Shown in pieces: positions 9,998 through 42,090 of a stretch of 58,728 bases of DNA (positions are counted from its first letter, which is position 1; each line of letters starts with the position of its first letter). The DNA lies in the IMG/VR virus record IMGVR_UViG_3300045988_090936. One strand, 5' to 3'. Source of the DNA: a virus. The translations under genes and the position numbers were made by a program. The notes below the pieces were generated by a model. The model was not told the origin of the DNA. It saw only the letters and a program-made list of their open reading frames with translations, and did no database searches.

Positions 9998-10000
9998 AAT

Positions 10001-11270: not shown

Positions 11271-11272
11271 AA

Positions 11273-11874: not shown

Positions 11875-11883
11875 AATTACCTC

Positions 11884-12786: not shown

Positions 12787-14005
12787 CTGATACCTCCACA
12801 TCTTTTTGGCATAATGGATCTATCAAACCATTTCTTCTAAATGCTGTTTCTCTCATAAAACATGGTCCACAATGATGGCAAGGTTCTTCTCCATCCCTAT
12901 AACAAGACCAAGTATATTGAAATGGTGCATTATACTCATTACCGAATGCCACTATTTCATGTTTCATAAGATTTCCTACTGGAGTTTCTATATCAACATA
13001 TTTACCATTTTGTACAGCCCCATATAAACAAGAGTTAAAATCTTTTATGAATTGGTTTTCATTATCTGGATATGCTCCACCTTCTTCTAGGTTTGTTCCT
13101 AATAGAATATGACTATATCCATTTGCCTCACAGAATCCTACTGCTAATGATAACATTATTAAGTTTCTTGCAGGTACCCATTCATAAGCATATTCAGCAC
13201 CTTCAATTCCATCTTTGATATCTTTCTTATCTCCAAATAATGCTGATTGCTTATTCATAAAGGACATATCTATTGGAATAACTTTATAATCACATCCTAG
13301 GTATTCAGCAATTTTCTTAATACATTCTAATTCTTTACTTTCAGCGATACAACCATATTGGTAATGTAATAGAATAGTATTCTTTGCTCCATATTTAGCA
13401 CAAGTATATGCTGCTACAGCTGTACTATCTAATCCACCTGAGCATACTACTGCTGCTTTACCTGTATCCTCTCTAGGTATTGGTAATGATTCTCCTGTTT
13501 CTTCATCTAGTATTGAATATGGTTCTAACCTCTTAACATTTTCTATTCCTTCTAAATGATTTTTATAACTTGAAAATATAAAATTCTCTTTTCCTGGGTT
13601 AGCATAGAAAATAGGTTTATAATTACAAGCAAGATAGAAATGTCCGTTTGGTTTCATTATTGCTAATGCATATGAACCTTTCAATTTTTGAATACTTTTT
13701 TGTAATGTATAGATATTACTAAAATCTAATACTTTAGATATAATGTAACTATCTATCATACCTTCCTTATTTCCCAACTCTTTATCATTTGCAATAGTAC
13801 CATTATGCACTACCTTATAATCTGTTCCGAATGGTTGGTTAAACTCGGAACTTTCAACTTCAGTTGTTGGAACTGCTCTATGATTACAAATCCAACTTCC
13901 TTTACGATAGAAGATATTACTATAATCTCTTCCTCTATCTAGTGCTCTATTGAACACTTTTATTGCTTCTTGGTCAAACTTACGACCACCACAAATTGAA
14001 CACAT
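12779..14005 (-). CDS. queC: Gat-QueC fusion (class II glutamine amidotransferase + 7-cyano-7-deazaguanine synthase domain)
   Basis: Starts MCSICGG (N-terminal Cys) behind AAAGGAGG. Also HNGTIAND, PP-loop VCSGGLDST and the zinc motif CHHCGPC. Confidence 0.85.
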   Translation of the reverse strand: MCSICGGRKFDQEAIKVFNRALDRGRDYSNIFYRKGSWICNHRAVPTTEVESSEFNQPFGTDYKVVHNGTIANDKELGNKEGMIDSYIISKVLDFSNIYTLQKSIQKLKGSYALAIMKPNGHFYLACNYKPIFYANPGKENFIFSSYKNHLEGIENVKRLEPYSILDEETGESLPIPREDTGKAAVVCSGGLDSTAVAAYTCAKYGAKNTILLHYQYGCIAESKELECIKKIAEYLGCDYKVIPIDMSFMNKQSALFGDKKDIKDGIEGAEYAYEWVPARNLIMLSLAVGFCEANGYSHILLGTNLEEGGAYPDNENQFIKDFNSCLYGAVQNGKYVDIETPVGNLMKHEIVAFGNEYNAPFQYTWSCYRDGEEPCHHCGPCFMRETAFRRNGLIDPLCQKDVEVSDE

Positions 14006-14066
14006 ATCTTTTCCTCCTTTTAGTTTTTCAAGTGGATTGGGTTGTGGATACCTTCCACCTAATATT

Positions 14067-14074
14067 ATTATACG
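14067..14074 (-). promoter_or_regulatory. CGTATAAT motif copy
   Basis: ATACGTATAATAATATTAGGTGG, overlapping the polA stop and upstream of gat-queC. Confidence 0.4.
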
Positions 14075-16344: not shown

Positions 16345-16346
16345 AA

Positions 16347-17147
16347 CTAGTACCCGCCGTTACCGTTATTTATAGTTCTACGATTATTATTCATTGGTGC
16401 AGCTGGTTGTTGGTAACCATAATTAGGTTGTGGACCATAACCTTGTGGTACTCCATATTGTTGTGGAGCTGGTTGGCTATAATCTTCAACTCTAGCTGGT
16501 TGACCAAAGTTATTATAGTTATTACCTCTTGGTTGGATACCTGGGTTTTGTACTGGAGCTTCTTGATTATTACCTGGAAGTACTCCTGTTCTTGTAAAGT
16601 TATCCATTTCATCATATGATAACTCTTTAATTATTCCTTGTTCAACTACATCAATAGGTTCTCCTAATTGTTCTAAAGTAGTTCCATCAACTGGTAATGG
16701 AATAACTGAATAAGTTGTTCTAGGATCTCCCTTTGCTCCATTTCTTTTAATCTTAAATGGAATTGAACATAATGGAGTATCTTTATACTCTATAAATAGT
16801 GGTTGTAATGTCTTTTCAAAGAATGAACCACCTCTTTGCCATACCTGTGCCTCATTTGCATCTTGGTTAAACACATTTAGATAAACACTCTTTCTAATTG
16901 GGTTTCCTGATGCACATAAAGGACATACAGATAATGGTGCTGAATTATCAGGTCTTAAACAACTGATAACCTTTCTGTTTCCTTCACTATCCTGTACTTC
17001 GTGAATAGTATCTACAATAATTTCTTCTAATGAATTATACATGAATCTAACTACTGCAGAATCACCATCATTACTTAAAGATAGAAAGTTAGTTCTTCCA
17101 CCACCTGATGGAAATTGCGCTGCTTGGGCTGGATTTAATCTTGCCAT
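16347..17147 (-). CDS. gp32-like ssDNA-binding protein with a Q/N/G/Y/P-rich C-terminal tail
   Basis: AVVRFM..., H-x13-C-x12-CPLC zinc-motif layout reminiscent of T4 gp32; sits next to the polymerase. Confidence 0.5.
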   Translation of the reverse strand: MARLNPAQAAQFPSGGGRTNFLSLSNDGDSAVVRFMYNSLEEIIVDTIHEVQDSEGNRKVISCLRPDNSAPLSVCPLCASGNPIRKSVYLNVFNQDANEAQVWQRGGSFFEKTLQPLFIEYKDTPLCSIPFKIKRNGAKGDPRTTYSVIPLPVDGTTLEQLGEPIDVVEQGIIKELSYDEMDNFTRTGVLPGNNQEAPVQNPGIQPRGNNYNNFGQPARVEDYSQPAPQQYGVPQGYGPQPNYGYQQPAAPMNNNRRTINNGNGGY

Positions 17148-17180
17148 AATTTTTCCTCCTTCATTTTGCTTCCTATATTT

Positions 17181-17188
17181 ATTATACG
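17181..17188 (-). promoter_or_regulatory. CGTATAAT motif copy
   Basis: T8-ATTCCTCGTATAATAAAT directly after a terminator, upstream of the SSB gene. Confidence 0.5.
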
Positions 17189-17193
17189 AGGAA

Positions 17194-17227
17194 TAAAAAA
17201 AAGAAGGATTATAAAGTAAATCCTTCT
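17194..17227 (-). terminator. rho-independent terminator
   Basis: Minus strand AGAAGGATT-tactttat-AATCCTTCT followed by T8; overlaps the stop of 17209..17796. Confidence 0.7.
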
Positions 17228-17796
17228 GAATAATTATTCGATAGTTTAAATTGTAAATTACTTAATAGTTCTTTATATTGTTTTAAAGTAATATTTAAGT
17301 GTTTACTAATCTCATTAGATTTATAACCGGCATCTATAAGTTTAACTAATGCTGATTCCAATCTGTTTAAATCATTTTCACTTATGAAATCATCTACTGT
17401 GAAATAATCTATTTCTCTTGATGGTTCATAGTTAATCTCCTCTTTTAATTGATCTAATGAATATGCTGATTCATTAAACTCATATTTCTTTGTTCTTTGC
17501 TTTTCTATGTAAGATATATATTCACATCTTAAAGCATTACCATAATAAGTTAATACCTTACCTTTACCACTGTTTAGTTTTGGAAGGCATCTAAATAATA
17601 CCTCCATCGCAATACTCATTTTATCTTCATATGGTATTGTAACATATTTGCTGCCAATACTTACACTGAATGCCTTAACCCCATACCATAATTGATTAAA
17701 ATATAATTCATTCTTTGTTGAGTTATACAATTCTGCTAACTCCTCTAAATTAAAACCTTGTACCCCTGATATTTCATTTTCACTTTTCATCTTCAT
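17209..17796 (-). CDS. sigma-factor-like transcription regulator (region 4-type HTH)
   Basis: C-terminal LESALVKLIDAGYKSNEISKHLNITLKQYKELLSNL HTH; has its own TTGATT-N17-TATATT promoter. Confidence 0.45.
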   Translation of the reverse strand: MKMKSENEISGVQGFNLEELAELYNSTKNELYFNQLWYGVKAFSVSIGSKYVTIPYEDKMSIAMEVLFRCLPKLNSGKGKVLTYYGNALRCEYISYIEKQRTKKYEFNESAYSLDQLKEEINYEPSREIDYFTVDDFISENDLNRLESALVKLIDAGYKSNEISKHLNITLKQYKELLSNLQFKLSNNYSEGFTL

Positions 17797-17942
17797 AATT
17801 TCTTTTACCTTTCACCTTTCAATAATTATGGATTGAAATATCATTAAACTTTTGTAAAAGTAATAAACCTAATTTAATTAGTTCACCACCCTTCCTGGAA
17901 TAAAACAATCACATCAGAATATCTTATCCTATCCATGTTATA

Positions 17943-17971
17943 AATATATGATATTGAAATTAAAAAATCAA
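17943..17971 (-). promoter_or_regulatory. housekeeping-sigma-type promoter (TTGATT-17 nt-TATATT)
   Basis: Minus strand TTGATTTTTTAATTTCAATATCATATATT with an A-rich upstream element, in the 212-bp gap upstream of 17796. Confidence 0.55.
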
Positions 17972-18008
17972 TAGTTTTTTCCATAATTTTTTAATTTCTT
18001 TTTTCGCC

Positions 18009-18977
18009 CTATTCATAATCCCTTAATTTACAAGGGACTTTCAAGAATTCGTCAAGTGTCAAATCATTGACATCTTTTCCTTCCGGCATCAAATATTCAT
18101 AAACGATTTTACCTTTTGAAATATTTTTACATAATTTTCTTGCACCATTTCTTCCAGCATTATCTCCATCAAGACATAAGTATACTGTTCTAAATGGTAA
18201 CTGATTTATTAAATCATATTGATAATTACTTCCTGTTCCCATTAAAGCAATAGCATTATAACCCCATTTCGCTAGAGTTAATGCGTTAAAGAATGATTCA
18301 CAGATAAATATATCGGGTTTGTTATAATCTAATTCATATACTCCGTATAACGGTTTATTTCTAGATGATGGTAAGATAAACATTTTACCAATTACAGAAC
18401 GCTTGGCTATAAATAGGGTTCTTCCATTTATATCTCTTATCGGAAATGTTATACTATTACTTACTCTATCATAACCAATATCATACTTCTCTATTATCTC
18501 ATTTGTTAAACCTCTTTTGTACATATATGGGTGGTAGTATCTATATTGTTGTAATAATGCCTCTTCAACAAATTGTTTAAGTGCTTCTTGACTTCTTCCA
18601 CTTTGTCTAGCTGGAATATAGACATTCAATTTCCTGGTATAAGTTACATCAAAGTTTTGTAATATCCAGTTAACCCCTTCAGTACCATCATCTTGTACTC
18701 CTAGTATTCTTGATATAAAAGTTTCTAAAGTACCTTTATACCCACAAGTAAAACAATGGACCCATATCTTACCATCTACCGGTTCATTATTTACACCACA
18801 AGATGGTTTTCTTTCTTCCCCGTGTTTATGGAAAGGACAGGTTACCATTGTATTTGTATATACATCTCTTATATCTCTAAAGATTTCATTTCCATCACGA
18901 TTTTTGATATAATTCTTTAACTCATTTAGAATATCAGTTGTAGTGGCATTTATTTGCCTATTATTTATAGTTAACAT
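18009..18977 (-). CDS. dnaG: DnaG-type DNA primase (CHC2 zinc finger + TOPRIM)
   Basis: CPFHKHGEERKPSCGV; ICESFFNALT; CLDGDNAGRNG. Confidence 0.85.
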   Translation of the reverse strand: MLTINNRQINATTTDILNELKNYIKNRDGNEIFRDIRDVYTNTMVTCPFHKHGEERKPSCGVNNEPVDGKIWVHCFTCGYKGTLETFISRILGVQDDGTEGVNWILQNFDVTYTRKLNVYIPARQSGRSQEALKQFVEEALLQQYRYYHPYMYKRGLTNEIIEKYDIGYDRVSNSITFPIRDINGRTLFIAKRSVIGKMFILPSSRNKPLYGVYELDYNKPDIFICESFFNALTLAKWGYNAIALMGTGSNYQYDLINQLPFRTVYLCLDGDNAGRNGARKLCKNISKGKIVYEYLMPEGKDVNDLTLDEFLKVPCKLRDYE

Positions 18978-20245
18978 TAGAATGGTGACTCCTCTTCATT
19001 ATTTCTTCTACTTAAACTTTCATCTTCTTTAGATGCAGTCTTTTCATTTCCATATCTAGAGAACTTAAATTCACCTTTATCAATATCCCATAAGTAAACA
19101 AATTGTCCTCCAACTGGTCCATATCTGTTTTTGACTACTTCTAATTTTAGTTCCTGCCCTACCCTTGACATACTTATTACCTTACTACTGTTTTGAGATA
19201 TTGCATCTGATTCACTCATATGTTCAAGTTCAGGTGTATCTGTTTTAGCGGCTGCTCTATTTGCTTGAGATAATGCCAATACAGGAACATGATATTTCAT
19301 TGATAAGTTAAATAAGTCTTGAGAGATATTTCCTAACTTAATTCTTAATTGTTCTTTGTAGTTAGTTCTATAATCCTGCATCAAACTGAATTGGTCTATC
19401 CCTACTATATCAAGATTGTATTTTTTAATCATGAAGTCTATATCATTTACTGTTGCTTGATGTCCTAGGTCTTTTGGTGTTATTACCACAAAACAATTTT
19501 CTGCTTTTTGTAATTCTTCTATATACTTTTCATATTTCTCTTTTTCTTCTTTACTTCCTCGCATCAATGCTAGGTTACTAAAATGTTGATATAATGCATC
19601 AAATCTATAACCTACTTGTTCAGAAGACATCTCTCCACTATAAAGCCCTACTCTTTTACCTTCCTTCCAAGCATTCATTAGTAGGTCAATTAGTATCCAA
19701 GATTTACCTTGATTGGTTCTTGCCATTATAGTAACCAATTCTTCTCCCAGCTGCCATCCTCCAATAGCATCATCAATTTCTTTTAGACCTATTGGAATTG
19801 TATTTGCTGTATCACTATCAATCTTTTTATTAAAAGTATCTAATCTATCTTTTGCATTCTTGATAATATCGTTTGAGGTAATTGGTCTGATATCTTCAAG
19901 TTCTGCTATTTTATTTTTCAATTTCTGATATGCTGATAAAGAATCTTCTTCCACATCTTTTACTATTCCATTAAGAGTTTGTGCTAATTGATTAAACATA
20001 TAACTTTCTCTTAACCCTAGAATTAAATAATTCCAATCTTCTTTATCACTTACAAATTCAAATTCATTAAACTTTCCCAAGAAAGTTTCTTTCGTTGGTA
20101 ACTTTCTATATTCATTGTAATGGTTATATATAAACTTTGCTTCTTTGTTATAGGTAATAAAGTAATCACTACTAATATTTTCATTAAGTAATAATTCAAT
20201 ATCTCCTCCGTTTAATAACTTACTAATTATTTGTGCTTCTATCAT
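18977..20245 (-). CDS. dnaB: DnaB-family replicative helicase
   Basis: GLKEIDDAIGGWQLGEL, ARTNQGKSW Walker A, RecA-like C-terminal domain. Confidence 0.88.
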   Translation of the reverse strand: MIEAQIISKLLNGGDIELLLNENISSDYFITYNKEAKFIYNHYNEYRKLPTKETFLGKFNEFEFVSDKEDWNYLILGLRESYMFNQLAQTLNGIVKDVEEDSLSAYQKLKNKIAELEDIRPITSNDIIKNAKDRLDTFNKKIDSDTANTIPIGLKEIDDAIGGWQLGEELVTIMARTNQGKSWILIDLLMNAWKEGKRVGLYSGEMSSEQVGYRFDALYQHFSNLALMRGSKEEKEKYEKYIEELQKAENCFVVITPKDLGHQATVNDIDFMIKKYNLDIVGIDQFSLMQDYRTNYKEQLRIKLGNISQDLFNLSMKYHVPVLALSQANRAAAKTDTPELEHMSESDAISQNSSKVISMSRVGQELKLEVVKNRYGPVGGQFVYLWDIDKGEFKFSRYGNEKTASKEDESLSRRNNEEESPF

Positions 20246-20931
20246 TACTTATCACCTCGGATTCCATATATTGAAATTACGGTACTATTATCTTCCACAT
20301 AATACTTTAAATCATTTCCAATAGCATTTATCAAATTACCAGCAGTATTTCTACCAATAAATATGTTACTTAAATTATTTGCTAACCTACTTTTAATTAT
20401 CATCTTTAGATAATTCCTTTCATATTCTGATAGTCTTACTTCATCAATTCCATCTAAAACTAATAAATCACATTCTCGCATTACCTTTTCAGTTTCTTTG
20501 AATTCTTTATCTTTACTATCAAAACTTAATTTTAATTCTCTTAAATATTCATTCAGGTCTAAATATAATGCCCTATCCTTTGAACCTGGTTTACCTATTA
20601 GATGATGAATATAATTTTGTAATATCTTTATACCCCAGCTTGTCTTACCGTTTTGTCTTTGGTTTGATTTTATATAAAGGTTAAAACCTTGTTCAACCAT
20701 TGCTGCTATATTCTTTTTGATTTCGCTTAAGATTTCAAAACTCTCTACATCTTCTTTACAACTTGGGTATAATACTATTGGTTGTACATACTTATGAGGT
20801 ATATTTGCATTATGCATCATCAAATCTATCTCATTGAAATCTACACACATTTTATAACATTCGCCATCAGAGGTTCTTTGCTTACATGTTTTTCTGTAAG
20901 GACAATCATTTCCATTTTTATAACAATACAT
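20245..20931 (-). CDS. DnaC/IstB-like AAA+ helicase loader with Cys-rich N-terminus
   Basis: NGKTSWG P-loop-like motif, DLLVLDGIDEV Walker B; lies directly downstream of... upstream of dnaB in the transcription order. Confidence 0.55.
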   Translation of the reverse strand: MYCYKNGNDCPYRKTCKQRTSDGECYKMCVDFNEIDLMMHNANIPHKYVQPIVLYPSCKEDVESFEILSEIKKNIAAMVEQGFNLYIKSNQRQNGKTSWGIKILQNYIHHLIGKPGSKDRALYLDLNEYLRELKLSFDSKDKEFKETEKVMRECDLLVLDGIDEVRLSEYERNYLKMIIKSRLANNLSNIFIGRNTAGNLINAIGNDLKYYVEDNSTVISIYGIRGDK

Positions 20932-20944
20932 GAAATCTACCTCC

Positions 20945-21565
20945 TCAATTTTTATTATACGAATTATTCATTACCTCATAAGTATCCGGAAATAGCATTT
21001 TATATTTTACTTTTAAAAGTTCTATAGTATTCTTTACAATATGCTTAACTTCTTTCATTGTTATGTTATGGGCGCTGGCAACTGTTCTTACCCCACGCTC
21101 TTCAATTATTCTTTCTATAAAGATTTCATATTCCTCTAAAGTAATATCTTCTTTATTAAGTAATTCCTTTAAACAGAATTCTATATCACTTTCCTCTTCC
21201 ATACTATTTTCTAAACATAAAACATCTTCTAATCTTATTGGTCTTTCACCATCATTGTAAATAATTTTTTCAAAACTATCTATTTCTACTTTTCTTACCC
21301 TTCCTGTAGTTCCTATAACAGGAGGTTTTACTACTAAATCTCTTTGTATGTATTCTTTTAAGAACCATTTAATATTCTTGACGGCATATGTAGAAAACTT
21401 TTTACCACTTTCTGGTTTGAAATTATCTACACATCTGATTAACTGTAAACAACCTTGTTGGAAATAATCATCATACTTACTTTTATCATATTCTAAAAGA
21501 TTAAGAGCATATCCAACTAGCGGCATGTTTTCAACTATCATTACCTCTCTTTCTTCCTTTGTCAT
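20945..21565 (-). CDS. sigma-70 family RNA polymerase sigma factor
   Basis: Region 2 pattern ENMPLVGYALN...DDYFQQGCLQLIRCVDNFKPESGKKFSTYAVKNIKWFLKEYI; C-terminal HTH. Confidence 0.75.
   Translation of the reverse strand: MTKEEREVMIVENMPLVGYALNLLEYDKSKYDDYFQQGCLQLIRCVDNFKPESGKKFSTYAVKNIKWFLKEYIQRDLVVKPPVIGTTGRVRKVEIDSFEKIIYNDGERPIRLEDVLCLENSMEEESDIEFCLKELLNKEDITLEEYEIFIERIIEERGVRTVASAHNITMKEVKHIVKNTIELLKVKYKMLFPDTYEVMNNSYNKN
20954..20961 (-). promoter_or_regulatory. CGTATAAT motif copy
   Basis: AATTCGTATAATAAAAATTGAGGAGG upstream of the loader gene; lies within the end of the sigma gene. Confidence 0.45.
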
Positions 21566-21570
21566 TCCCT

Positions 21571-22536
21571 TTAATATCCTTTCTTGATAAACGATGGAAC
21601 AAAGTTTTCTCTGTTAGCACTTGGTGGCTCATTTTTGAAATCCATATATGGTGTTGTTCCATTTCCTCTCAAGGCAAACTCTATTTTCTCTAATACCTGG
21701 TTTACCATTACTTTTCTTCCTTTGGTTCCTGGAATACTTATACTAGTGCTATTATACAAATAATCTAAAACTTCATGCCATTCTTCTAAAGTCCAAACCG
21801 CCCTCTGTCTATTTACTTGAATTACATAATTGGTTAAAGCATTACTAATATCTTTATATGCTATATAGTAATCTTTTATCGCATCAATGTATGGTGCTAG
21901 ATTAACCCCTTGTTTTCTTTTCTTTGGTTTCTCCTCGACCGGCGCTGCGGGTTCCAAGAAATCTTTTTCGAATACGTTTTCCTCTAAAACAACTTCATTA
22001 CCCATTTTAGTATTATTATTTATTTCATCTTTCCCATCTTGTGCCCCCGTGGCACTATTAGTTAATATATCTTTAGATATATTACTAATAGATGGATTAT
22101 TTATTATATTATTATTTAATTGGTGGTTATTTATAACCATACCCCTCTGGTTATTTTTAACCCCACCCCCGTTATCAATAACTATAAATAATTTTCTAAA
22201 AGAGATTTGTTTTGTGGTAATTATTTCACCATTCTTTTCTTTCTTCTTCTTATAAACAATTTCTCTTTTGAGATAACCAAGATTGACTAATTTAGTTATT
22301 GAATCTCTTACTCTGCATTCACTTTTATTTAGCATCTTTGCTATATAAGCATTACTAGCCCAGCAGTATCCTTCTTTTCTACATAGACCAGTTATAGCAG
22401 AATACAGAATTCTTTCAAAGTCAGTTAGTCTTTCATCAGTTAAAATATCATATGTCAACATCAAAAACTGTGAACTGGAATACTCTTGTTCCTTTTCTTC
22501 CGGCTCTATTACATAACCATTCTCATCAAATTCCAT
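21571..22536 (-). CDS. replication initiation protein (winged-helix N-terminus, DnaD-like C-terminus)
   Basis: LTDFERILYSAITGLCRKEGYCWASNAYIAKMLNKSECRVRDSITKLVNLGYL, typical of phage replication initiators. Confidence 0.6.
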   Translation of the reverse strand: MEFDENGYVIEPEEKEQEYSSSQFLMLTYDILTDERLTDFERILYSAITGLCRKEGYCWASNAYIAKMLNKSECRVRDSITKLVNLGYLKREIVYKKKKEKNGEIITTKQISFRKLFIVIDNGGGVKNNQRGMVINNHQLNNNIINNPSISNISKDILTNSATGAQDGKDEINNNTKMGNEVVLEENVFEKDFLEPAAPVEEKPKKRKQGVNLAPYIDAIKDYYIAYKDISNALTNYVIQVNRQRAVWTLEEWHEVLDYLYNSTSISIPGTKGRKVMVNQVLEKIEFALRGNGTTPYMDFKNEPPSANRENFVPSFIKKGY

Positions 22537-22559
22537 ACTTTGTTACCTCCTCAATTATA

Positions 22560-22567
22560 ATTATACG
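22560..22567 (-). promoter_or_regulatory. CGTATAAT motif copy
   Basis: T8-ATATCTCGTATAATTATAATTGAGGAGG directly after a terminator, upstream of the initiator gene. Confidence 0.55.
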
Positions 22568-22573
22568 AGATAT

Positions 22574-22598
22574 AAAAAAAATAGGCATTGCTGCCTAT
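22574..22598 (-). terminator. rho-independent terminator
   Basis: Minus strand ATAGGCA-gcaa-TGCCTAT followed by T8. Confidence 0.75.
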
Positions 22599-22969
22599 TT
22601 TACAGAAATTACTTGGGATTCAGTTATTGAGTTAAAAGGTATTACATAATCTAAAGGAATAATCTTATCTTGAACTGCTTGAGTTAAAGCTTCATTATCT
22701 ATAACTTCTTTAGTTCTAATGATAGTATTCTTAATTGCATCCTCGAATGATTTATCATTCTTGAATTGTTCAATGAAAGCATCTTCATTAAATACTTCTT
22801 TAGTTCTTACTGAAATCTTCATAGTAGCTTTGTTACCTTTAATTTCAGTTCTACCATCTTTTAAGATTCTTTCCTTTAATGCCTTTTCTTGTTCATCAAA
22901 GTTTTTCTTTGCATCACGAACTTCTTTTAACTTATCAACAACTTCTTCCATTGTTAGATTATCAAACAT
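22595..22969 (-). CDS. hypothetical protein in its own promoter/terminator-bounded unit
   Basis: ORF with GAGGAGGAG RBS; lies between two terminators and two near-identical promoter-like elements. Confidence 0.6.
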   Translation of the reverse strand: MFDNLTMEEVVDKLKEVRDAKKNFDEQEKALKERILKDGRTEIKGNKATMKISVRTKEVFNEDAFIEQFKNDKSFEDAIKNTIIRTKEVIDNEALTQAVQDKIIPLDYVIPFNSITESQVISVK

Positions 22970-22989
22970 AATTTCTCCTCCTCATAATA

Positions 22990-22997
22990 ATTATACG
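22990..22997 (-). promoter_or_regulatory. CGTATAAT motif copy
   Basis: GATATCTCGTATAATTATTATGAGGAGG after a terminator, upstream of 22595..22969. Confidence 0.55.
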
Positions 22998-23014
22998 AGA
23001 TATCATAAAACAAG

Positions 23015-23041
23015 AAAAAATCAACGCCATATAAACGTTGA
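23015..23041 (-). terminator. rho-independent terminator
   Basis: Minus strand TCAACG-tttatatgg-CGTTGA followed by T6. Confidence 0.65.
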
Positions 23042-23081
23042 TAGGAAGGTTTTTCAACCTCTGTCAATATATTTGGATGGA

Positions 23082-23354
23082 CTATTTTTCAGTCTTTTTC
23101 TCTCTTTTGTATTTCTCTCTAAATGCCTTACCGTAACGATGGTTATAATTATATTCCGACATCTCTCCATATTTTTTATTCTTAAATAATTCAATTATTT
23201 CTTTAGCACTTTCATCACTATAAACATATTTAGAACTTTGATATGGTTCAGGTTGAGGAACTGGCATATTATATTCGATACGATATTTAATAAATGCTAA
23301 AATAGCATCTTTTTGTACTCCACATTCTTTTGCAATATCTTCTAACTTATACAT
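23082..23354 (-). CDS. small HTH DNA-binding protein
   Basis: MYKLEDIAKECGVQKDAILAFIK resembles MerR/excisionase-type HTH. Confidence 0.45.
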   Translation of the reverse strand: MYKLEDIAKECGVQKDAILAFIKYRIEYNMPVPQPEPYQSSKYVYSDESAKEIIELFKNKKYGEMSEYNYNHRYGKAFREKYKREKKTEK

Positions 23355-23385
23355 ATTTAATTCCTCCTCTATTATATTCTATGTG

Positions 23386-25074
23386 TTATTCATCATAACT
23401 TTCTTCTTTGAAGATACATCTAATAAACTTCTTAAATTCTTTTGAATCTTTTCCATCTACTAAAATATCTCCAAAACTTGCCTTCTCAATAATCATTTTA
23501 TTAAGAAGTTCATCATAACTATCTTTCATAAGTAAACTAATTACTGTTACAGTATGTTTAGTTCCAATTCTATGTGCCCTATCTTCAGCCTGTTCCATAG
23601 TTGCTTTGTTCCAAGGTAAATCTAAAAAGACTACTATTGATGCTTCATTTAAAGTATGTCCTGTACCAGCTGCCATTGTTTGTCCGAATAGTACTTGGAA
23701 ACCTGGTGTGTTTTGGAATGTATCTTTTTGTTCTTGTAATTCTATTTGATTCATTTGACCCCATATATGCAAAGGCTTCATATCTTCAAATTCTTTTAGA
23801 GCCATTTCTATTAACTCTCTAAACATACTAAATACAATTACTTTCTCACCAGTTAATTGAGCTTCCTCTAATATATCTCTTAACTTTTCAAACTTGGTAC
23901 TCTTTACTACTTGGGTACTAACTAATCCAGTATGACAAAGTACTTGTCTCATTCTAGTTAACTTTGGTAATATCAATGTTGGATTTGAAATCTTATCACA
24001 TTCTTTTTTAGTTGCATTAACAATTTCATTATACAATCTTCTTTCATCGTTTGACATTTCAAGGTATATATCTTGATGTATCTTTTCTGGAAGGTCTAGT
24101 AAATCTTTAGTTCTTCTTAACATATTGTTATTCATTAACTCTTGTAACTCTCCCATATTTTGATAACCAATAGGTGTTCCCCATATATCTTGTACTGTAT
24201 AACGATTCATAAATTGATAATAGTTCATAGTTAATGCTTGAATGAAACTTAATGGCATATACAAATCCATTGGTTTGTTAACTAATAAAGTACCACTTAA
24301 ACCAATCTTTTGACATCCTTTAATTTTTAGTAATCCTCTACCTTGCATAGATGTTGGATTCTTGGCTTTATGAATTTCATCTACAATAACTAATCCTAGT
24401 TCTCCATCTTTTATAAACTCATTGATAATATCTACTATCTCTGATTTATAGAATCTACCTTCTTTATGGCAGCGTAATGTTTCTATATTAGTTATCCAGA
24501 AGAATTCTTCAGGCTTACTTTTTAAGTCTTCTATTCTTTCATTCATAGTTGGTTCTTTTCCTGGTTTAGTAAAACCTATTACCTTACCACTTTCATCACT
24601 ATGTTTCTTTATTTCATCTATCCAATTATATTTTAAGTTATTAACTCCACAAATAATAAGACAATGTTTTAGACCATTATGTTCTTTCTTCCATACTGCC
24701 AAGTCTATCATTTGTTTTGTTTTACCTAAACCTTGTTGGTCTCCTAATAACCAATTGTTATGTTCAATACCATATTTAACACCTTCCAACTGATGTGGAA
24801 AAGAAGGAGTTTTGAATTTAAGTTCTTTTATATCCACAACTGCTGGTGGTGCAAATATTGGTGCCTCATTTAGTTCTTTTATATCAGGTTCAAATTGTTT
24901 TACCATAGGAACCAAATTAAGAGGTATCTCCCATTCCTTTCTCGAAGGATTCCAGAACCTACAAGGTAGTTTCTTTATTTCTTCAACATACATTGGATTA
25001 TAAGTAAATGATAAGTAGGCACTAAAATCATTAACATTCTGTTTATCAGGTTCGCCATATCTTATATAAATCAT
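23386..25074 (-). CDS. SNF2-family helicase
   Basis: LGDQQGLGKTKQ (motif I), VIVDEIHKAKN (DExH), C-terminal helicase domain with QAEDRAHRIGT. Confidence 0.88.
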   Translation of the reverse strand: MIYIRYGEPDKQNVNDFSAYLSFTYNPMYVEEIKKLPCRFWNPSRKEWEIPLNLVPMVKQFEPDIKELNEAPIFAPPAVVDIKELKFKTPSFPHQLEGVKYGIEHNNWLLGDQQGLGKTKQMIDLAVWKKEHNGLKHCLIICGVNNLKYNWIDEIKKHSDESGKVIGFTKPGKEPTMNERIEDLKSKPEEFFWITNIETLRCHKEGRFYKSEIVDIINEFIKDGELGLVIVDEIHKAKNPTSMQGRGLLKIKGCQKIGLSGTLLVNKPMDLYMPLSFIQALTMNYYQFMNRYTVQDIWGTPIGYQNMGELQELMNNNMLRRTKDLLDLPEKIHQDIYLEMSNDERRLYNEIVNATKKECDKISNPTLILPKLTRMRQVLCHTGLVSTQVVKSTKFEKLRDILEEAQLTGEKVIVFSMFRELIEMALKEFEDMKPLHIWGQMNQIELQEQKDTFQNTPGFQVLFGQTMAAGTGHTLNEASIVVFLDLPWNKATMEQAEDRAHRIGTKHTVTVISLLMKDSYDELLNKMIIEKASFGDILVDGKDSKEFKKFIRCIFKEESYDE

Positions 25075-33924: not shown

Positions 33925-34981
33925 TGATTACCACATCTCCTTCCCTTACTGGAATTTCATTACTTTCCAATGAAAGGTTAGAAGATGAATTATTCATTTT
34001 AGTATTTGTAATATCTAATACCCCAGCTACTCCAAGTAACCTTGTTTCTAATTGACTAATTCTTGCAATAAGATTATCTTCTTTATCCCAGCTATTTGAT
34101 AATGATTTGAAATAATTATCTACTATATTATTTACTGAATCTTGAATATCTGTTGGGTCTACCCCTGATTCTAAAGTAAATGTAGCACTTACAGTTATGT
34201 TCTTTGCTACAGCTCCTTCAACAGTAACAATATGACCTATTGGTGCAATTCCTAATCCTTGTTGGTCTTGGTTAGGGTCTACTGCTTCTTGAACATCATT
34301 TACTAATGAACTTGTAGGAACTCCTCCTTGCGAGTTAGTAATTATAAGTTTTACTGTTCCTCCACCATTCCATATTGGAACTACTTTACATCCACCAACT
34401 CCTGTTAAAGATTTAACTTTTGTTTGATAATCAGAAACATTACCACCAAATTGTGGAGCAGTAACACTTTCCATATATCTTACTCTTAAATCTTCATCAG
34501 ATTCTATATCATCACCCATATCAATTATATCAGTTAACTCTGCTCTTGTAAGTCCTTGTAAATAAGTTATTGGAGTTAGAGAACCATAATAACTATTACC
34601 AACTACTCCAGCTTGTTCACATCTTAATATCGAGTTATTTGTACCTACAATATTTTCAATAACAATATAAGTATTTTCTCCATCACTAAATCTATTATCA
34701 ACTGGTACTACCATATTGAATTCACCTTTACGTAAAGCATAAGTGGCATCTTTTCTTTTAACACCATTTTGTTCTACTAATTTATCAAGGGCTTCTCCTA
34801 CGGCAGTATCTATAAATACCTGGTCATATATTCCTGATAGTTCTATATACATTTGAGCTAATTCTACGCAGCAAGGTGCTAAAGCATCATAAATTATAGA
34901 ACCTTGTCTTTTATCGATAGTATTGGGAATTCTATCTAGACATCTTTGAAGAATCTCTTCATAAGTAGGTATTTCATTCAT
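33917..34981 (-). CDS. baseplate J-like protein (XkdT-like)
   Basis: Size, position and an N-terminal pattern typical of baseplate J. Confidence 0.7.
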   Translation of the reverse strand: MNEIPTYEEILQRCLDRIPNTIDKRQGSIIYDALAPCCVELAQMYIELSGIYDQVFIDTAVGEALDKLVEQNGVKRKDATYALRKGEFNMVVPVDNRFSDGENTYIVIENIVGTNNSILRCEQAGVVGNSYYGSLTPITYLQGLTRAELTDIIDMGDDIESDEDLRVRYMESVTAPQFGGNVSDYQTKVKSLTGVGGCKVVPIWNGGGTVKLIITNSQGGVPTSSLVNDVQEAVDPNQDQQGLGIAPIGHIVTVEGAVAKNITVSATFTLESGVDPTDIQDSVNNIVDNYFKSLSNSWDKEDNLIARISQLETRLLGVAGVLDITNTKMNNSSSNLSLESNEIPVREGDVVINV

Positions 34982-35373
34982 TATAGATTCACCTCCCAGT
35001 TAATATTGATATCACCAATATTTGTTTCAACTAAAAATACTACATTCGCTACATCTTTATTAAAAGAGATATCAAAATCAGTAACATCTAATATTCTATC
35101 ATCTTCTAATATAGCTTCAGCAATTCTTCTTTTCAATTCTGACTTAACAAAATCTCTATCCTTTCCAACTAAAGAATCAAATTCAGTACCATAATACCAA
35201 TTGTATATTACTGATTCATATCTCTCGGTAGAAAGTATTAAATAGATTGCTTGAACAATAGCATCTTTATCGTCTATGTAACCGGAAATACGATTTGTAT
35301 TTCTATTTATATAATATGTTTTAGACGGCATAGTATTATCTTGTTGATATATTGTATTATAATCTGGCAACAT
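34981..35373 (-). CDS. XkdS/gp25-like baseplate wedge protein (DUF2634-like)
   Basis: KTYYINRNTNRISGYIDDKDAIVQAIYLILSTERYE pattern. Confidence 0.6.
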   Translation of the reverse strand: MLPDYNTIYQQDNTMPSKTYYINRNTNRISGYIDDKDAIVQAIYLILSTERYESVIYNWYYGTEFDSLVGKDRDFVKSELKRRIAEAILEDDRILDVTDFDISFNKDVANVVFLVETNIGDININWEVNL

Positions 35374-35411: not shown

Positions 35412-35876
35412 TTATGATACTCTCTTCCAGGCATAAACTTGAAAAGTGGCTATATTATGTGAGTGCCCTTCACTAGCATTTGAACCTCCTGCATATTCAG
35501 TATTAGTCCAAGAGTCTTCGTGCATATCTCCTTTATATACATCTCCATGAAATCCATAAGACATCTCAGAGAATTTGTAAAAAGGAGAATGAATATTATG
35601 ATTATGTGCTGGTAATCCTGATTGATTAGCAGTTAAAGTATGACTTTGAGTACCGATTCCTGTATAATTAGTTTTAGTACCACCAGTTCCTAGATATAAA
35701 TAATAACCACTTATTTGTTCCCATTTTCCTCCAAAGATAGTTCCTGGGTTGGTATTGTTTACTGATAAATAAACATAACCTATTGGAAATAGAATAGTAT
35801 TTAATATTTTCTTATTATGTACTATTCCTCTAGTATCTAAATATAAATTATTCTTTAACTTAACTGATTTGCTCAT
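35412..35876 (-). CDS. receptor-binding tip protein, cassette A (154 aa)
   Basis: PIGYVYLS...NPGTIFGGKWEQ, HNHNIH and GHSHNI HxH motifs, C-terminal VYAWKRVS; paralogous to the next three genes. Confidence 0.7.
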   Translation of the reverse strand: MSKSVKLKNNLYLDTRGIVHNKKILNTILFPIGYVYLSVNNTNPGTIFGGKWEQISGYYLYLGTGGTKTNYTGIGTQSHTLTANQSGLPAHNHNIHSPFYKFSEMSYGFHGDVYKGDMHEDSWTNTEYAGGSNASEGHSHNIATFQVYAWKRVS

Positions 35877-35892
35877 ACCTTACGGTATTATC

Positions 35893-36356
35893 TTAACTTA
35901 CTCTTTTCCACATTTTTACTACTATATAAGGTTGGAGGTTTCCACTATTTCCAGTATTAACTCCTCTTACACCCTTTGTATATACAGCGCCTCCTTGAGA
36001 TACTTCTGTATTTGTTGCTACTCCGTATCCACCAGCTGGTGCGGGTATTGGAAAATCACTATAATAAGTATAATGACTATGTTCCTGTATATATTTACTA
36101 CCACCAGTTTTTAGCAAAGTATTAAATTCCGTTTGTGAAGTATCAACTCCTACAAGACATCTTCCTGTTCCAAAAGTTTCCCAAGTACCGCCAAAGTAAG
36201 TAGAGGGATTAGTATTAACAGTAGATATAAATATGGAACCTACCGGATAAATATTATCAAGTAAGTTATTTAGATAATACCATCCCCCCCCCTCTTATGT
36301 ACTATTGAGGTTGAAGAAAGGTATAAACTATTTTTTAATTTTACTGCTTTTGACAT
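35893..36356 (-). pseudogene. receptor-binding tip protein, cassette B, interrupted by a frameshift at a G9 tract (phase-OFF allele)
   Basis: ATG at 36356 gives MSKAVKLKNSLYLSSTSIVHKRGG, then the frame breaks at the G9 run and stops after 28 aa. With 10 G the frame runs to 35893 (154 aa, ending KMWKRVS). Confidence 0.8.
36284..36292 (-). repeat. homopolymeric G9 tract (C9 on the plus strand) inside cassette B
   Basis: Plus strand cat-ccccccccc-tctt, counted directly. Confidence 0.9.
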
Positions 36357-36374
36357 ATAGTTTGAACTATATTA

Positions 36375-36833
36375 TTAAGCTGTTCTTATCCAAATATAAC
36401 ATGTAATATAAGGTTGAAAATTAGAAACAGTACCTGTATTTCCATGATTATGCGGTTGATTATAACCATATTGACCATAGTCTCTTAATGAGGTAATCTG
36501 CCAACCACTAACCCCTGTTTTTGCAGCTCCTGATAAATAACCAAAGTTACCATCAATGCAAACTTCTAATGGTAAATGTTTATAATCTAAAGTAAAGTTT
36601 CCAGTTGTATGATAATGTTCTTTGTTACCACCAGTTTTCTTAACAGTATTGAAATTGATATCTGATGTATCCACGCATACTGGAACTCTTCCTGGACCAA
36701 ATAGTTCCCACTTACCACCAAGATAGTTTGATGGATTAGTTGCTATAGTAGTAAGAAATAAATCTCCTACCCTATAATATGGAGTGGTTACAATTTTATT
36801 ACCTGTTTTATCTTTTAAATAAACTGCCTTCAT
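36375..36833 (-). CDS. receptor-binding tip protein, cassette C (152 aa)
   Basis: MKAVYLKDKTGNKIV..., RVGDLFLTT...NPSNYLGGKWE, HNHGN, C-terminal YIWIRTA. Confidence 0.7.
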   Translation of the reverse strand: MKAVYLKDKTGNKIVTTPYYRVGDLFLTTIATNPSNYLGGKWELFGPGRVPVCVDTSDINFNTVKKTGGNKEHYHTTGNFTLDYKHLPLEVCIDGNFGYLSGAAKTGVSGWQITSLRDYGQYGYNQPHNHGNTGTVSNFQPYITCYIWIRTA

Positions 36834-36847
36834 TCTATTCTAATAGA

Positions 36848-37288
36848 TTATTTTATTCTTTTCCATACCCATACACCAATATGCGGAATATCATGTGAAT
36901 GTCCTTTACCACCGCCTGTATAAGACGTATCTCTTTCAAATCTATATGTGGTTGAACCATCTTGTACTCCAAGTATATCTTCACCACCAGCTTGTTCTGA
37001 ATAATACATTCTTGGCGCCCAATAAATATGCTTATGAGATGGTATTTGGTTAATTGTCAATGTTGTGTCAAAGCTCTTTGTAGAACCAACGCTACTATTC
37101 ATAAGGTTATTATCTATAGCGCTATTACATCCCCAAAGAAATCCTCCAGAAATCTTTTCCCAGGTTCCTCCAAAGTATTTACTTGGATTATCATTAGATA
37201 CGGTTAAGAATATTGAACCAATAGGCATCCACGGAGCAGCAAATACTTTATTTCCATTTTTATCTTTTAACTGAACCGCCCTAGCCAT
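36848..37288 (-). CDS. receptor-binding tip protein, cassette D (146 aa from MARAVQLKDKNGNKVF)
   Basis: PIGSIFLTVSNDNPSKYFGGTWE, SHKH, GHSHDI, C-terminal VWVWKRIK. Start chosen at the ATG behind AGGTGA, parallel to the other cassettes. Confidence 0.7.
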   Translation of the reverse strand: MARAVQLKDKNGNKVFAAPWMPIGSIFLTVSNDNPSKYFGGTWEKISGGFLWGCNSAIDNNLMNSSVGSTKSFDTTLTINQIPSHKHIYWAPRMYYSEQAGGEDILGVQDGSTTYRFERDTSYTGGGKGHSHDIPHIGVWVWKRIK

Positions 37289-37391
37289 TGGCATCACCTA
37301 ATCTATTTATACCTCCTTCCGGAGATATATGAGAAGGAGAACAACTTAAATAAGTTCTTCCCCCCCCCCCTCGAATTATTCTAAACATCAT
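37281..37391 (-). CDS. 36-aa leader ORF containing a G11 tract, ending on the cassette D start codon
   Basis: AAAGGAG RBS 9 nt before ATGATG; MMFRIIRGGGGRTYLSCSPSHISPEGGINRLGDANG; its stop TAG overlaps the ATG of cassette D (ATGGCTAG). Confidence 0.4.
   Translation of the reverse strand: MMFRIIRGGGGRTYLSCSPSHISPEGGINRLGDANG
37360..37370 (-). repeat. homopolymeric G11 tract (C11 on the plus strand)
   Basis: Plus strand ttctt-ccccccccccc-tcgaa, counted directly. Confidence 0.9.
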
Positions 37392-37408: not shown

Positions 37409-37960
37409 TTAAAAGTCTTCAATTACTTCATACTCTAAATATACATCTAAATTAGGTTTATTCTTTATGTAATCTAAAGAAGATGTATTAGTTTGATTCC
37501 AATCACTTTGTATTTGAGCAGCTGGTATAGTTGGTTTATCTCTTAAATCATTATAAGAACCAGTTTTTGATATCTTATGTAATTTAATAGTTCCTCCTAT
37601 TGTTTCATTACTGCTTACTGATTGGCTTGCTGTATTATTAGTATTTAGAATTGGCTTGTTTTGAAGGTCATTATAATTTATTGTACCTCCACTTGCTGCC
37701 TTTCCTAAAATATAAAATCTTTGACCATTGTTGTAACGAACCATTTCAATTTCTTCTCCCACAACAAGTGGTAGGGCTGAACTAGGAGAAGAGTCATCTA
37801 TTCCTAGACTCCTAGGTTCAATGAAGCTCAGCCCTATACTAATTTTATTACTAATTCTTACTTTTAGAGGTTCTAAAGATTCTACTGTACCTTTTATTAT
37901 TGTTGTAAATGAAATACTGTTTAATTTACGGTTTATTGCTTCATTTATAGTATTTATCAT
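37409..37960 (-). CDS. XkdR/gpV-like baseplate spike protein with C-terminal fibre repeats
   Basis: GTVESLEPLKVRISNKISIG (DUF2577-like OB fold); repeats YNDLQNKP / YNDLRDKP / DYIKNKP. Confidence 0.55.
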   Translation of the reverse strand: MINTINEAINRKLNSISFTTIIKGTVESLEPLKVRISNKISIGLSFIEPRSLGIDDSSPSSALPLVVGEEIEMVRYNNGQRFYILGKAASGGTINYNDLQNKPILNTNNTASQSVSSNETIGGTIKLHKISKTGSYNDLRDKPTIPAAQIQSDWNQTNTSSLDYIKNKPNLDVYLEYEVIEDF

Positions 37961-39657: not shown

Positions 39658-42090
39658 TTATGCCTCCTCTACTACATATAATTCTGCTAATTCATCTTCC
39701 ATCATCTTTTGAATTGCATCTTTAACAGCTCCTACATCTGCTGTTTCTCTTACATCTCCGAAGCTGATGTTTACATTTGGAGTTATATGTTTATAGTTTA
39801 ACATATATTCTCTTGTTGCAATATCTTTTAGCATCTTTAAATCTTCATCTGAAATATCTACTTCTTTATCTGAATTCTTCTTAATATCAACAGGTACATT
39901 ACCATTTGGTGTCATCATCTTTGACATATCGAACTCTCCGAATTGGTTTTGGTCCATTGGATTATTTAATAAGTCATCCATCATATTACCAGGATTGAAA
40001 CTTCCTATTGCTGATGAAATCTTATTGGTAATGTTATCTCCCCACGCTGCACCTTTTGTAAAGGCATCTGCTACCCAACCTTCTCCGAAGGTATCAAAGG
40101 TATCCATTCCTTTATTAAATGCATCTGTAAGACTTTCATAATCCTCTTTACTGTTTTGAGCATCTTTAGCTTTCTTCGCATAATCTTTAGCTTTACTTGT
40201 AATACCACTATAGTCAAAGTCTACGAATGGTAATTTATTTAATGCTTTACAAATACCTTCAACTACTGTTAGAGCTGTACTTAATAGGTTATAGAAGAAA
40301 GATTGTACATTCTTAATTGCATTACTAAATGCTATTCTTACATTAGATGCACAAGCTTTCATAACTTCCCATATACCAAGTCCAATGTTAGCAACTTCTA
40401 ATCCCAAGTTCTTGAAGAATTGAATTACTACATTAACTCCACCAGCTATCATTCCCAATCCAGAACCAGCAAGTCCAGTTGCTTTTGCCATCCATTGCAT
40501 AAAGGCAAAGATTGCTGCTATCAATGCTATTACTAATACTATTATCCAAACAAGTGGACAAGCATATAACGCTCCATTAACAGCCCATTGAACTATGTGC
40601 CATATTGCTAAAGCTGCTACTAATAATCCAATAACTACTACTATTATTTCTAATGGAGTTTTTAATGCCATTAACACTCCAACTACTATTGCAATAATTC
40701 CTATCGCTAATAACATTTGAGAGTTAGCAGCCATCCACGCTGTTGCCTTCGCCCATAATGCAGTTACGGCAGCCCACGCAGCTGGTACATATGTTCCAAT
40801 TAACACTGCAGCTATTGCTCCAAGTAATGGAATTGTTATATACATATGGTTAGCTAGGAAATCAAATCCCCATCCTAATCCTTGTAATATAATCAATGCC
40901 ACTCCGGCAAATGTTCTAATACCACTTAATATTCCACTTAATATTGTTTGGAACCTTTCACTATTTAACATTTCCGCAATCTTATCAGCAACAGGTTGCA
41001 TATATCTTTGAGCTGTATTCTTCATACTATTCATAGCATCTCCGAATGTCTTTGGCATCTGTTCATATTTAGCATTGATATCATCTGCTGCGCTAAATAA
41101 AGCATTCTTAATTATATCAGATGTAATAGCTCCTTCGGCAGCTAGATCTCTTAACTCACCTTTTGATTTACCCATATACTTCGCAATTGCATCAGCAAGC
41201 ATTGGTGCATTCTCCATAATACTTCTGAATTCATCACCTTGAAGTTTACCACTTGCCATTGCTTGAGTTAACTGATATGTTGCTGCACTTATTTCTTGTT
41301 GTCCTGCTCCTGATACTTTAAATGATTTATTCATCATTTCACTAAATGCTATCATTTCATCATTATTCTTAAATGCATCTCCAGCAAGTAATCCTAATTT
41401 AGAAACTGAATTAGCCATATCAGTATAAGAACCTCTTGACCTTTGTGCTGCTTGATATAGTTTATTCTGTAAATCAATTGTGGTTTGTGTACCATCATTT
41501 ATTAAGTTCAATCTAGATTGTGTTAATGATAATTCATCTGACCAATCTAAAACTTTCTTTACTCCTCCGAATAATGTTTTAGCAGCTTGGATTGTTTGAT
41601 TGAACTTAAGCATTTTAGCTGTCCATTTATCTATTCCACCTTCTACATCTCTTTCTTTAGGTGGTATCTTTCCTACGTTATCAGCTACTTTCAATACTTC
41701 TTCGGCTTGCTTTTCTATTTCACCAGTTAATTTATCTGATTTCATAGCCAAGTCTTCCACCTTATTTTGAATGTTATTGATTGAGGTTTGTATTCCATTT
41801 ATTTTCTTTTCATTTTTAGAATACATTCCTTGTTCAGTAGCTAATTCCTTTTCTAGAATCTTTTGCTTTTGATTTAGCAACTCTGCTTGAGTATTTATTC
41901 TATCTTGAGAATGTTCTAACTGAAGGTATTTATCAATGGCATTTTGTAAAGCTGGAGATACATTTCCACCTATTGGTTGGTTAGCAATAACATCAGCTTT
42001 ATCTATAACACTATCCATAGCACTTGCAACACTGTTAAATGTTTTAGTCGCTTGGTCCTGCATTTTAAATGTAGAACTAATAGTTGCCAT
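39658..42090 (-). CDS. tape measure protein
   Basis: 810 aa with a coiled-coil N-terminus and a central hydrophobic block; lies downstream of the frameshifted chaperone. Confidence 0.85.

Follow-up and report, generated by a model that had tools for sequence, protein, structure and literature searches.

A poly-G tract as a candidate ON/OFF switch in a baseplate cassette of an uncultured gut phage

In the Campylobacter Fletchervirus phages, hypermutable polyG tracts make the expression of receptor-binding proteins phase-variable (Sorensen et al. 2021, Cell Rep 35:109214, as cited in PMC10579305, PMC12823448 and PMC10877375). Contingency loci of bacteria such as Campylobacter, Neisseria and Haemophilus carry poly-G/C runs near the 5' end of surface-structure genes, cj1421/cj1422 being an example (PMC8713573). 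Contingency loci have also been described in phages T2 and T4, where reversible frameshifts at simple repeats are proposed to serve bet-hedging; these repeats are mostly A/T runs of at least 6, occur in all gene classes and are under-represented in tail-fibre genes (Gomez, Barrick & Waters 2025, bioRxiv 10.1101/2025.10.21.683753). The present work concerns a run of nine G residues (G9) in the IMG/VR virus record IMGVR_UViG_3300045988_090936, a stretch of 58,728 nucleotides (nt), hereafter the window, from an uncultured ~58.7-kb phage with a contractile tail. The run lies in cassette B, one of four paralogous genes (A to D) that stand in a tandem array and encode proteins with a Gp10_C baseplate domain. 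It is likely to be a hypermutable poly-G contingency tract, placed about 22 codons into the gene, which switches the gene ON and OFF by slipped-strand mispairing. The first-pass annotation of this DNA had proposed such a switch and had pointed to the Campylobacter phages; that precedent is real, as its citation in PMC10579305 and PMC12823448 shows.

The G9 tract and the reading frame of cassette B

The elements at issue are the following.

36284..36292, minus strand: G9 homopolymer in cassette B, recognized from frame logic, from relatives with G8-G11 at the same site and from its rare codons
35893..36356, minus strand: cassette B, Gp10_C baseplate-protein gene (PF21939, 87 bits, E 2.4e-24), out of frame (OFF) here
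36270..36356, minus strand: truncated product of the G9 state, 28 amino acids (aa), from translation of the open reading frame (ORF)

All genes of the window lie on the minus strand, and the nine C residues read on the plus strand at 36284..36292 are therefore G9 on the coding strand of cassette B (minus-strand letters of positions 36292..36284: GGGGGGGGG). The tract spans codons 22-25 (AAG AGG GGG GGG G..) and in its G10 form encodes R-G-G-G. With G9, cassette B is 464 nt long and one base out of frame. Re-translation of the ORF from the ATG at 36356 gave MSKAVKLKNSLYLSSTSIVHKRGGDGII*, so that the stop after 28 aa reported in the first-pass annotation stands. When the tract was set in turn to each length from G8 to G12, G10 alone opened the frame to the stop at 35893 (G7 and G13, which share the phase of G10, lay outside this series). 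The G10 product is a protein of 154 aa that aligns with cassettes A, C and D and has the C-terminus WKRVS in common with A; its length, its ending and its likeness to A had all been foreseen, and the replacement of the tract bears them out.

Only two G/C runs of at least 6 occur in the 58,728 bases, whose G+C content is 30%: the one at 36284..36292 and a C11 at 37360..37370. It had been stated earlier that there are two runs of this kind, both in the array. The count holds, and the second run lies in an upstream ORF (uORF) of the array leader, not in a cassette. Matches to G8 number six, all of them in the array, versus 0.18 expected from dinucleotide-preserving shuffles, and none of 100 shuffles reached six. 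In the window's long ORFs, GGG accounts for 5% of Gly codons and AGG for 10% of Arg codons; from this usage the probability of AGG GGG GGG as the spelling of R-G-G is ~2.5e-4. Five other Gly-Gly-Gly tripeptides are found in these ORFs, and they are written mainly with GGT and GGA. Because the tract is spelled with rare codons, unlike those other tripeptides, its composition indicates a homopolymer that is selected at the nucleotide level, as DNA and not merely as a glycine loop. Nine G residues, 22 codons into an ORF, also reach the length that defines a simple-repeat contingency locus (at least about 7-8 G inside an ORF or control region).

The mechanism that we envisage is as follows. Slipped-strand mispairing in replication would add or remove one G, probably on the phage's own replisome, to judge from the family-A polymerase, clamp and clamp loader that it encodes. 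G10 would be the ON state, giving the full 154-aa protein; G8, G9 and G11 would be OFF states, giving a harmless peptide of ~28-34 aa (the OFF product of the window is only 28 aa long because the tract comes early in the gene). The window would represent a genome, or the majority of a population, caught in the OFF state. We infer that switching is reversible and frequent within a population, and its outcome would be phages whose baseplates bear different subsets of the four paralogous cassette proteins, which are conserved in their N-terminal parts and hypervariable distally.

Tract length in relatives and in a sister family

Related loci were fetched through tract-independent neighbour proteins (XkdS-like and LysM) to avoid a bias to in-frame genes. 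After removal of duplicates, 17 independent contigs with the tract were available, the window included. Nine of them are in frame and eight are out of frame:

In frame, G10 (n=8): L093, L095, L096, L099, L109, L110, L116, L117
In frame, interrupted G9A (KRGGEW): L098
Out of frame, G9 (n=6): window, L094, L100, L101, L111, L113
Out of frame, G11: L108
Out of frame, deletion fusion of leader and B at the tract: L097

Further contigs from JGI and IMG/VR have G8 (L004), G9 (L070), G11 (L054/L074 and L075) or an in-frame G8AG (L076), and two more OFF contigs with G9 (L103, L104) were found through the look-up of a 74-aa fragment. The flanks, 30 nt on each side, are nearly invariant in all relatives, and tract length is the most variable character of the locus: G8, G9, G10 and G11 all occur between conserved flanks, the length polymorphism by which a contingency locus is recognized. 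Comparison with relatives was a test that the first-pass annotation had named, and the homopolymer proved to be present at the exact position, its length varying between close relatives. The interrupted in-frame alleles, G9A and G8AG, look like 'locked-ON' variants.

At the protein level, a search with repaired cassette B returned 1026 homologs. The nearest (P0001) is in frame and 95% identical over the full 154 aa; the DNA of its locus (L002) is 97% identical to the window and has G10 at the same site. In many homologs the N-terminal 60 residues, KRGGGW included, are almost identical, and wholly different middle parts follow. The 90%-identity cluster of the window's allele contains eight full-length proteins of 154 aa and three 74-aa fragments that stem from gene calls in the OFF state. 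A scan of IMG/VR with the exact flank pattern gave 0 matches, synonymous differences breaking the pattern; the protein-based scan worked.

The variation in frame bears on the possibility of programmed recoding, in which B would be expressed from the G9 form, either through a -1 frameshift on G GGG GGG or through insertion of a G by a slipping RNA polymerase. The G10 protein is exactly what a -1 slip on AGG GGG GGG G would yield, homopolymers of at least 9 can support transcriptional slippage, and the region folds better than its shuffles (z = -2.8). The out-of-frame state is not conserved, however: 9 of the 17 contigs are in frame (G10 or G9A), and others have G8 or G11. Moreover, the interrupted forms G9A and G8AG hold the frame without a slippery run, and the predicted fold uses the G tract as an arm, paired with a pyrimidine stretch about 75 nt downstream, and presents no evident stimulator 5-9 nt downstream of the tract. 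We consider recoding highly improbable, and leaky expression by slippage in the OFF state may occur but would be a side effect. Programmed frameshifting as the designed mode of expression was rejected on two grounds, the unconserved out-of-frame state and the lack of an evident downstream stimulator.

Repaired by tract length only, six of six OFF alleles became intact ORFs of 152-170 aa. The out-of-frame alleles are thus otherwise sound, and their return to frame is possible in principle. Almost every OFF genome has an ON genome as its nearest neighbour, at 0.4-1.5% divergence over 850 nt adjoining the array. Because the nearest neighbours of OFF genomes are ON, the frame must, on these comparisons, have been switched many times independently. 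An alternative is that B is a pseudogene, being lost from a redundant four-gene array through an ordinary inactivating frameshift; of the explanations considered here we give this one the least weight. It would fit the number of cassettes per array, which varies from 1 to 4 among relatives, the loss of two cassettes in L097, and the failure to find the exact ON version of the window's allele in the protein collection. It fits poorly with the alleles themselves: neither this nor any other OFF allele has a second lesion, the lesion is always at the tract, repaired B has the best Pfam score of the four cassettes, and OFF alleles are scattered at the tips among ON relatives, with no decaying clade. 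Gene decay had been named in the first-pass annotation as what might undo its proposal, and the intact repaired alleles, together with 87 bits on Gp10_C for repaired B, make it very improbable.

The cleanest evidence for tract switching comes from a sister family of ~115-kb phages, represented by seven contigs (L118-L124) from different samples of one study and from Logan runs. Their identity over 3.5-6.4 kb is 99.9-100%; compared with the reference L119, each has 0-2 substitutions and 0-4 indels (2-4 indels per contig, none in L124). Six poly-G tracts lie within 2.7 kb (L119 positions 2416, 2595, 3529, 4060, 4562 and 5065), one in the leader and five about 22 codons into Gp10_C cassettes. Five of the six differ in length between contigs and one is constant. 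Three cassettes are seen both ON and OFF, in differing combinations (154 vs 28, 162 vs 29 and 156 vs 29 aa), and one varying tract is out of frame in both of its states. Two of the contigs (L123, L124) end at a tract or 13 nt after one. In an IMG/VR contig of the same ~115-kb family (L071), two cassettes are out of frame at their tracts.

Similar arrays with 2-6 tracts are present in contigs binned with metagenome-assembled genomes (MAGs) of Clostridiaceae and 'Bacilli' (L089, L088, L079). The N-terminus MAKSIKFKNxxYLDSSS is common to L089 (550..5600, Clostridiaceae MAG contig), L088 and L079, and their cassette bodies are very different. Of the six tracts in L089 (G9-G11), one lies inside a frameshifted Gp10_C gene and the others in remnants that resemble leaders.

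Two variants of similar coverage cause an assembler to break a contig, and contigs do end at the tract. In IMG metagenome 3300031994, one contig (L070) ends 10 nt past the tract with G9 and another (L054) starts 117 nt before it with G11; their overlap is identical apart from this difference. In another metagenome, L075 ends 13 nt beyond a G11, and scaffold L102 has an N10 gap abutting the tract (2318..2334). These contig ends and the gap are suggestive of heterogeneity within samples.

A number of points weigh against the reading of the tract as a switch. Every length call is an assembly consensus, and where contigs break or show N gaps at the tract, the cause could be that G runs are badly read. 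Of the eight OFF calls, six are one G short (G9), and PCR or sequencing stutter favours the same direction. The control homopolymers are weak, only a short A6 (invariant in 8 of 8) being covered by relatives. Modification of the DNA with 7-deazaguanine, for which the window has a candidate gene set (see below), could alter slippage, library preparation and sequencing at G runs. An exact G10 copy of the window's allele was not found in the protein collection, and reversion in this lineage is presumptive. Finally, the closest structural relative of the cassette proteins is the C-terminal domain of T4 gp10, a baseplate connector, and the function being switched is putative.

One alternative is that the true tract is an invariant in-frame G10 and the G9 a consensus miscall. 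In its favour are the errors to which long G runs are prone, the contig breaks and N gaps at the tract, the preponderance of -1 among the OFF calls and a possible 7-deazaguanine modification of the template DNA. Against this, eight of the 17 independent assemblies are OFF, from various studies, pipelines and sources (ENA, Logan, JGI); the same G9 occurs in six of them, and G8 and G11 occur as well. In Illumina assemblies, the consensus at a 10-mer is wrong in far fewer than 50% of cases. Tracts of G8/G9 in the sister family, a length that can be read dependably, differ between contigs that otherwise match. And even if the present call were wrong, the conserved rare-codon G10 would stay slippage-prone. 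We therefore regard a miscall as improbable; as a general explanation it is unlikely, and it might still apply to this single window. The first-pass annotation had itself raised assembly error, and the scatter of OFF assemblies among ON relatives answers it in part, judged as it is indirectly, on consensus sequences. Altogether, the length polymorphism, the intact OFF alleles and the interleaving of ON and OFF genomes support slipped-strand phase variation at G9, as originally put forward.

The leader tract and the cassette array

The array sits in a PBSX/xkd-type contractile-tail module. Upstream of it are, in order, the genes for the tape measure (39658..42090), a LysM protein, a YqbQ-like protein and an XkdR-like protein (37409..37960); the leader uORF and cassettes D, C, B and A follow, and downstream are the sheath initiator XkdS (34981..35373), baseplate J, an XkdU-like protein and a tail fibre. 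Besides cassette B, the array comprises the following features.

37360..37370, minus strand: second homopolymer, G11, in the array leader between the XkdR-like gene and cassette D
37281..37391, minus strand: leader uORF, 36 aa in the G11 frame, with a strong Shine-Dalgarno (SD) sequence (GAAAGGAG)
37331..37368, minus strand: predicted leader hairpin 1, in which the G tract and downstream UUCUCCUUCUC pair with each other and enclose a small inner hairpin (z = -2.5)
37308..37329, minus strand: predicted leader hairpin 2, in which the GGAGG (37312..37316) that precedes cassette D is sequestered
36848..37288, minus strand: cassette D, the first cassette, Gp10_C, 146 aa from ATG GCT, with a GTG alternative at 37297
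36375..36833, minus strand: cassette C, Gp10_C, 152 aa, short N-terminal type, without an SD sequence
35412..35876, minus strand: cassette A, Gp10_C, 154 aa, N-terminal type as in B, no tract (..IVHNKKILN..)

The leader tract also varies in length, relatives having G9, G10, G11, G12, G13 or the interrupted forms G6AG3 and G7AGG. The leader sequence and uORF are near-identical across the relatives examined, and the uORF peptide is homologous to a cassette N-terminus. In the G11 frame, the stop of the uORF overlaps the ATG of cassette D by 8 nt (ATGGCTAG). In the G10/G13 frame the stop is a TAA just after the tract, and in the G9/G12 frame it falls just upstream of D, or on ATGA with other first cassettes. 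In two unrelated leaders of L089, one frame likewise ends in an 8-nt overlap and another stops early. Fusion of the uORF to cassette D at some other tract length was considered and rejected, being blocked by the TAA after the tract and by a TAG at 37300..37298.

The consensus fold of the leader is conserved; 2 of 24 pairs show a compensatory change, and the alignment of divergent leaders is poor. In hairpin 2 all 8 pairs are invariant and so uninformative either way. No match was obtained with Rfam, at gathering thresholds, for the window and five related loci. The predicted RNA structure of the leader is unproven, and we do not claim it.

Cassettes C, B and A have no SD sequence, and every neighbouring tail gene has GGAGG. 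The three cassettes start 14, 18 and 16 nt after the preceding stop (36834..36847, 36357..36374 and 35877..35892, respectively), and these gaps are kept in relatives (14, 18-20 and 15-16 nt). This absence of SD sequences and the short distance to the preceding stop suggest termination-reinitiation at C, B and A. In that case the frameshift in B may have a polar effect, and the OFF state of B would lower the translation of cassette A as well.

The leader and internal tracts might act together, the poly-G runs gating a translationally coupled chain of cassettes and tract-to-tract deletions possibly reshuffling the array. We put this forward tentatively, as a possibility about which we are doubtful. 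The length of the leader tract would set whether ribosomes pass the SD-masking hairpin and terminate on the start codon of the first cassette; later cassettes would rely on reinitiation, and an internal frameshift such as the G9 of B would silence that cassette and those that follow. If this were true, gut phages of Bacillota type and prophage-like arrays would widely possess a combinatorial system, in which a single array can have as many as six tracts.

A different role for the tracts is conceivable, namely that they are mainly recombination or deletion joints for the reshuffling of cassettes and that changes of frame are a by-product. In L097 (2500..2600), the upstream flank of the leader runs straight into the downstream flank of B, with a G10 run precisely at the junction; the contig lacks cassettes D and C, and the fused frame is off by one base. 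The tracts can thus serve as deletion or recombination joints. The homology of the leader peptide to a cassette N-terminus, the leader-like remnants with tracts in the L089 arrays and a phage-encoded RecA would be in keeping with such joints. Nevertheless, one junction of this sort was seen in about 30 genomes, against +/-1 length changes in about half, and a 10-nt homopolymer is a poor substrate for homologous recombination. As the principal role of the tracts, reshuffling is very unlikely; it is compatible with slipped-strand switching and would add to it rather than replace it.

All four cassettes match Pfam PF21939 (Gp10_C) above the gathering threshold of 27 bits (A 41.4, repaired B 87.3, C 76.5, D 55.5). 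Sequence matches of the cassette protein in the PDB were to T4 gp10 only. The AlphaFold monomer of the ON ortholog is mediocre (pLDDT, the predicted local confidence, 68), and Foldseek against the PDB retrieved only T4 gp10 and a Klebsiella phage baseplate protein, at a TM score of about 0.3. The predicted structure contributes nothing beyond Pfam; in it, the GGG forms a turn between two short strands, before the Gp10_C domain. The cassette proteins have a baseplate domain and HxH motifs, and their docking end is conserved while the remainder is hypervariable; from these traits we infer that they are host-recognition determinants.

In B-type cassettes (the window compared with P0002-P0033 and L093-L117), the first 60 residues are almost identical, often along with the last ~13. 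The ~90 residues between these conserved ends are unrelated from genome to genome, a pattern that points to modular exchange of the distal part.

The phage in comparison with known switching systems

The baseplate J protein of the phage is about 47% identical to those of the C. difficile myophages phiC2 and CDMH1, and its lysin domains are GH25, CW_7 and LysM. From these tail genes and lysin domains, the earlier designation as a Gram-positive-type myovirus is reasonable. A megablast search of the array against 50,697 phage records gave no match, and a distant blastn search matched only the XkdS gene of C. tetani phages. Because there is no match at the DNA level beyond this gene, the phage appears to have no cultured close relative. 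Across the 12.5 kb that were compared, the window matches a scaffold from a human-gut metagenome at 100% identity (ENA ERZ28659340, study code ZEEV15). The phage is common, since its XkdS-like neighbour protein is indexed in 434 blocks of public assemblies. No integrase was seen among the ORFs scanned, a subset of those in the window, which suggests a virulent lifestyle.

Two gene sets elsewhere in the window deserve mention. A replisome is encoded within 2499..25074, comprising a family-A polymerase with 3'-5' exonuclease, a clamp, two clamp-loader-like proteins, a DnaB-like helicase, a primase and RecA; an SNF2 helicase and a sigma factor are encoded in the same interval. A complete-looking set for 7-deazaguanine DNA modification lies at 9386..14098 (FolE, a QueE-like radical SAM protein, a DpdA/TGT-like transglycosylase and a Gat-QueC fusion).

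Several things would follow if the switching is real. Different baseplate variants would persist side by side within gut phage populations, with a bearing on host range and on coexistence with the host. 'Frameshifted' tail genes in metagenomes should not be called pseudogenes, and assemblies can be expected to break at the tracts. Rare-codon G runs about 22 codons into Gp10_C genes would serve as a marker for candidate host-range determinants in uncultured phages. The claim could be checked now, public reads existing for dozens of ON and OFF samples. The same device would extend to the ~115-kb family and to the prophage-like arrays in MAGs of Clostridia and Bacilli, with up to six tracts.

As to the protein that would be switched, the best fold match is the C-terminal domain of T4 gp10 (PF21939; PDB 2FKK, 2FL8 and 5HX2), with which the cassettes have in common the motifs IYPxGxIY..NP..FGG.W and NxQPYI.VY.W.R. 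T4 gp10 is a wedge protein of 602 aa, and its C-terminal domain serves to anchor other fibres. The cassettes, in contrast, are stand-alone domains with an N-terminal extension of 25-30 aa and a hypervariable middle.

As to the mechanism, the invertible G/C segments of Mu and P1 and the diversity-generating retroelements of Bordetella phage BPP-1 likewise yield alternative host-recognition proteins within one population, though not through the length of a homopolymer, as proposed here. No invertase, inverted repeats, reverse transcriptase or template repeat was seen around the array in a search that was not exhaustive. The loci of T2 and T4 come closer in their use of simple repeats, and the present phage differs from them in that its repeats are two long, isolated runs of G, written in rare codons and found nowhere but in a baseplate cassette array. 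Bacterial contingency loci resemble the present one in their N-terminal tracts of 8-11 G, in ON/OFF changes by +/-1, in a probable mixture of lengths within populations and in interrupted, 'locked' alleles. They differ in that the tract here belongs to a virus with its own replisome, and the rate of slippage would probably be set by the phage polymerase and not by host replication and repair.

The Fletchervirus phages, so far as the citing papers go, offer the nearest parallel: a poly-G run in a virion or host-recognition gene toggles expression by its length, several genes per phage are affected, and the outcome would be phenotypically mixed progeny. The present phage departs from them in its PBSX/phiC2-like tail and Gram-positive-type lysin, in a 30% G+C genome whose only G runs are those of the array, and in ~150-aa Gp10_C cassettes arranged in tandem, with a second tract in a leader uORF. 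A further difference is that switching is proposed here from sequence comparison. The ten organism names that recur most in tblastn matches against phage records do not include Campylobacter. To our knowledge, experimental proof of poly-G phase-variable virion proteins exists for Campylobacter phages only, and our literature search turned up no account of such tracts from gut phages of Firmicutes type or from Gp10_C cassettes. In conclusion, the mechanism proposed for cassette B is one already known; cassette B would be a further case of it, well supported by comparison, in a widespread uncultured gut phage lineage that resembles phages of Bacillota, and the array with its leader tract may prove to be a new variant.

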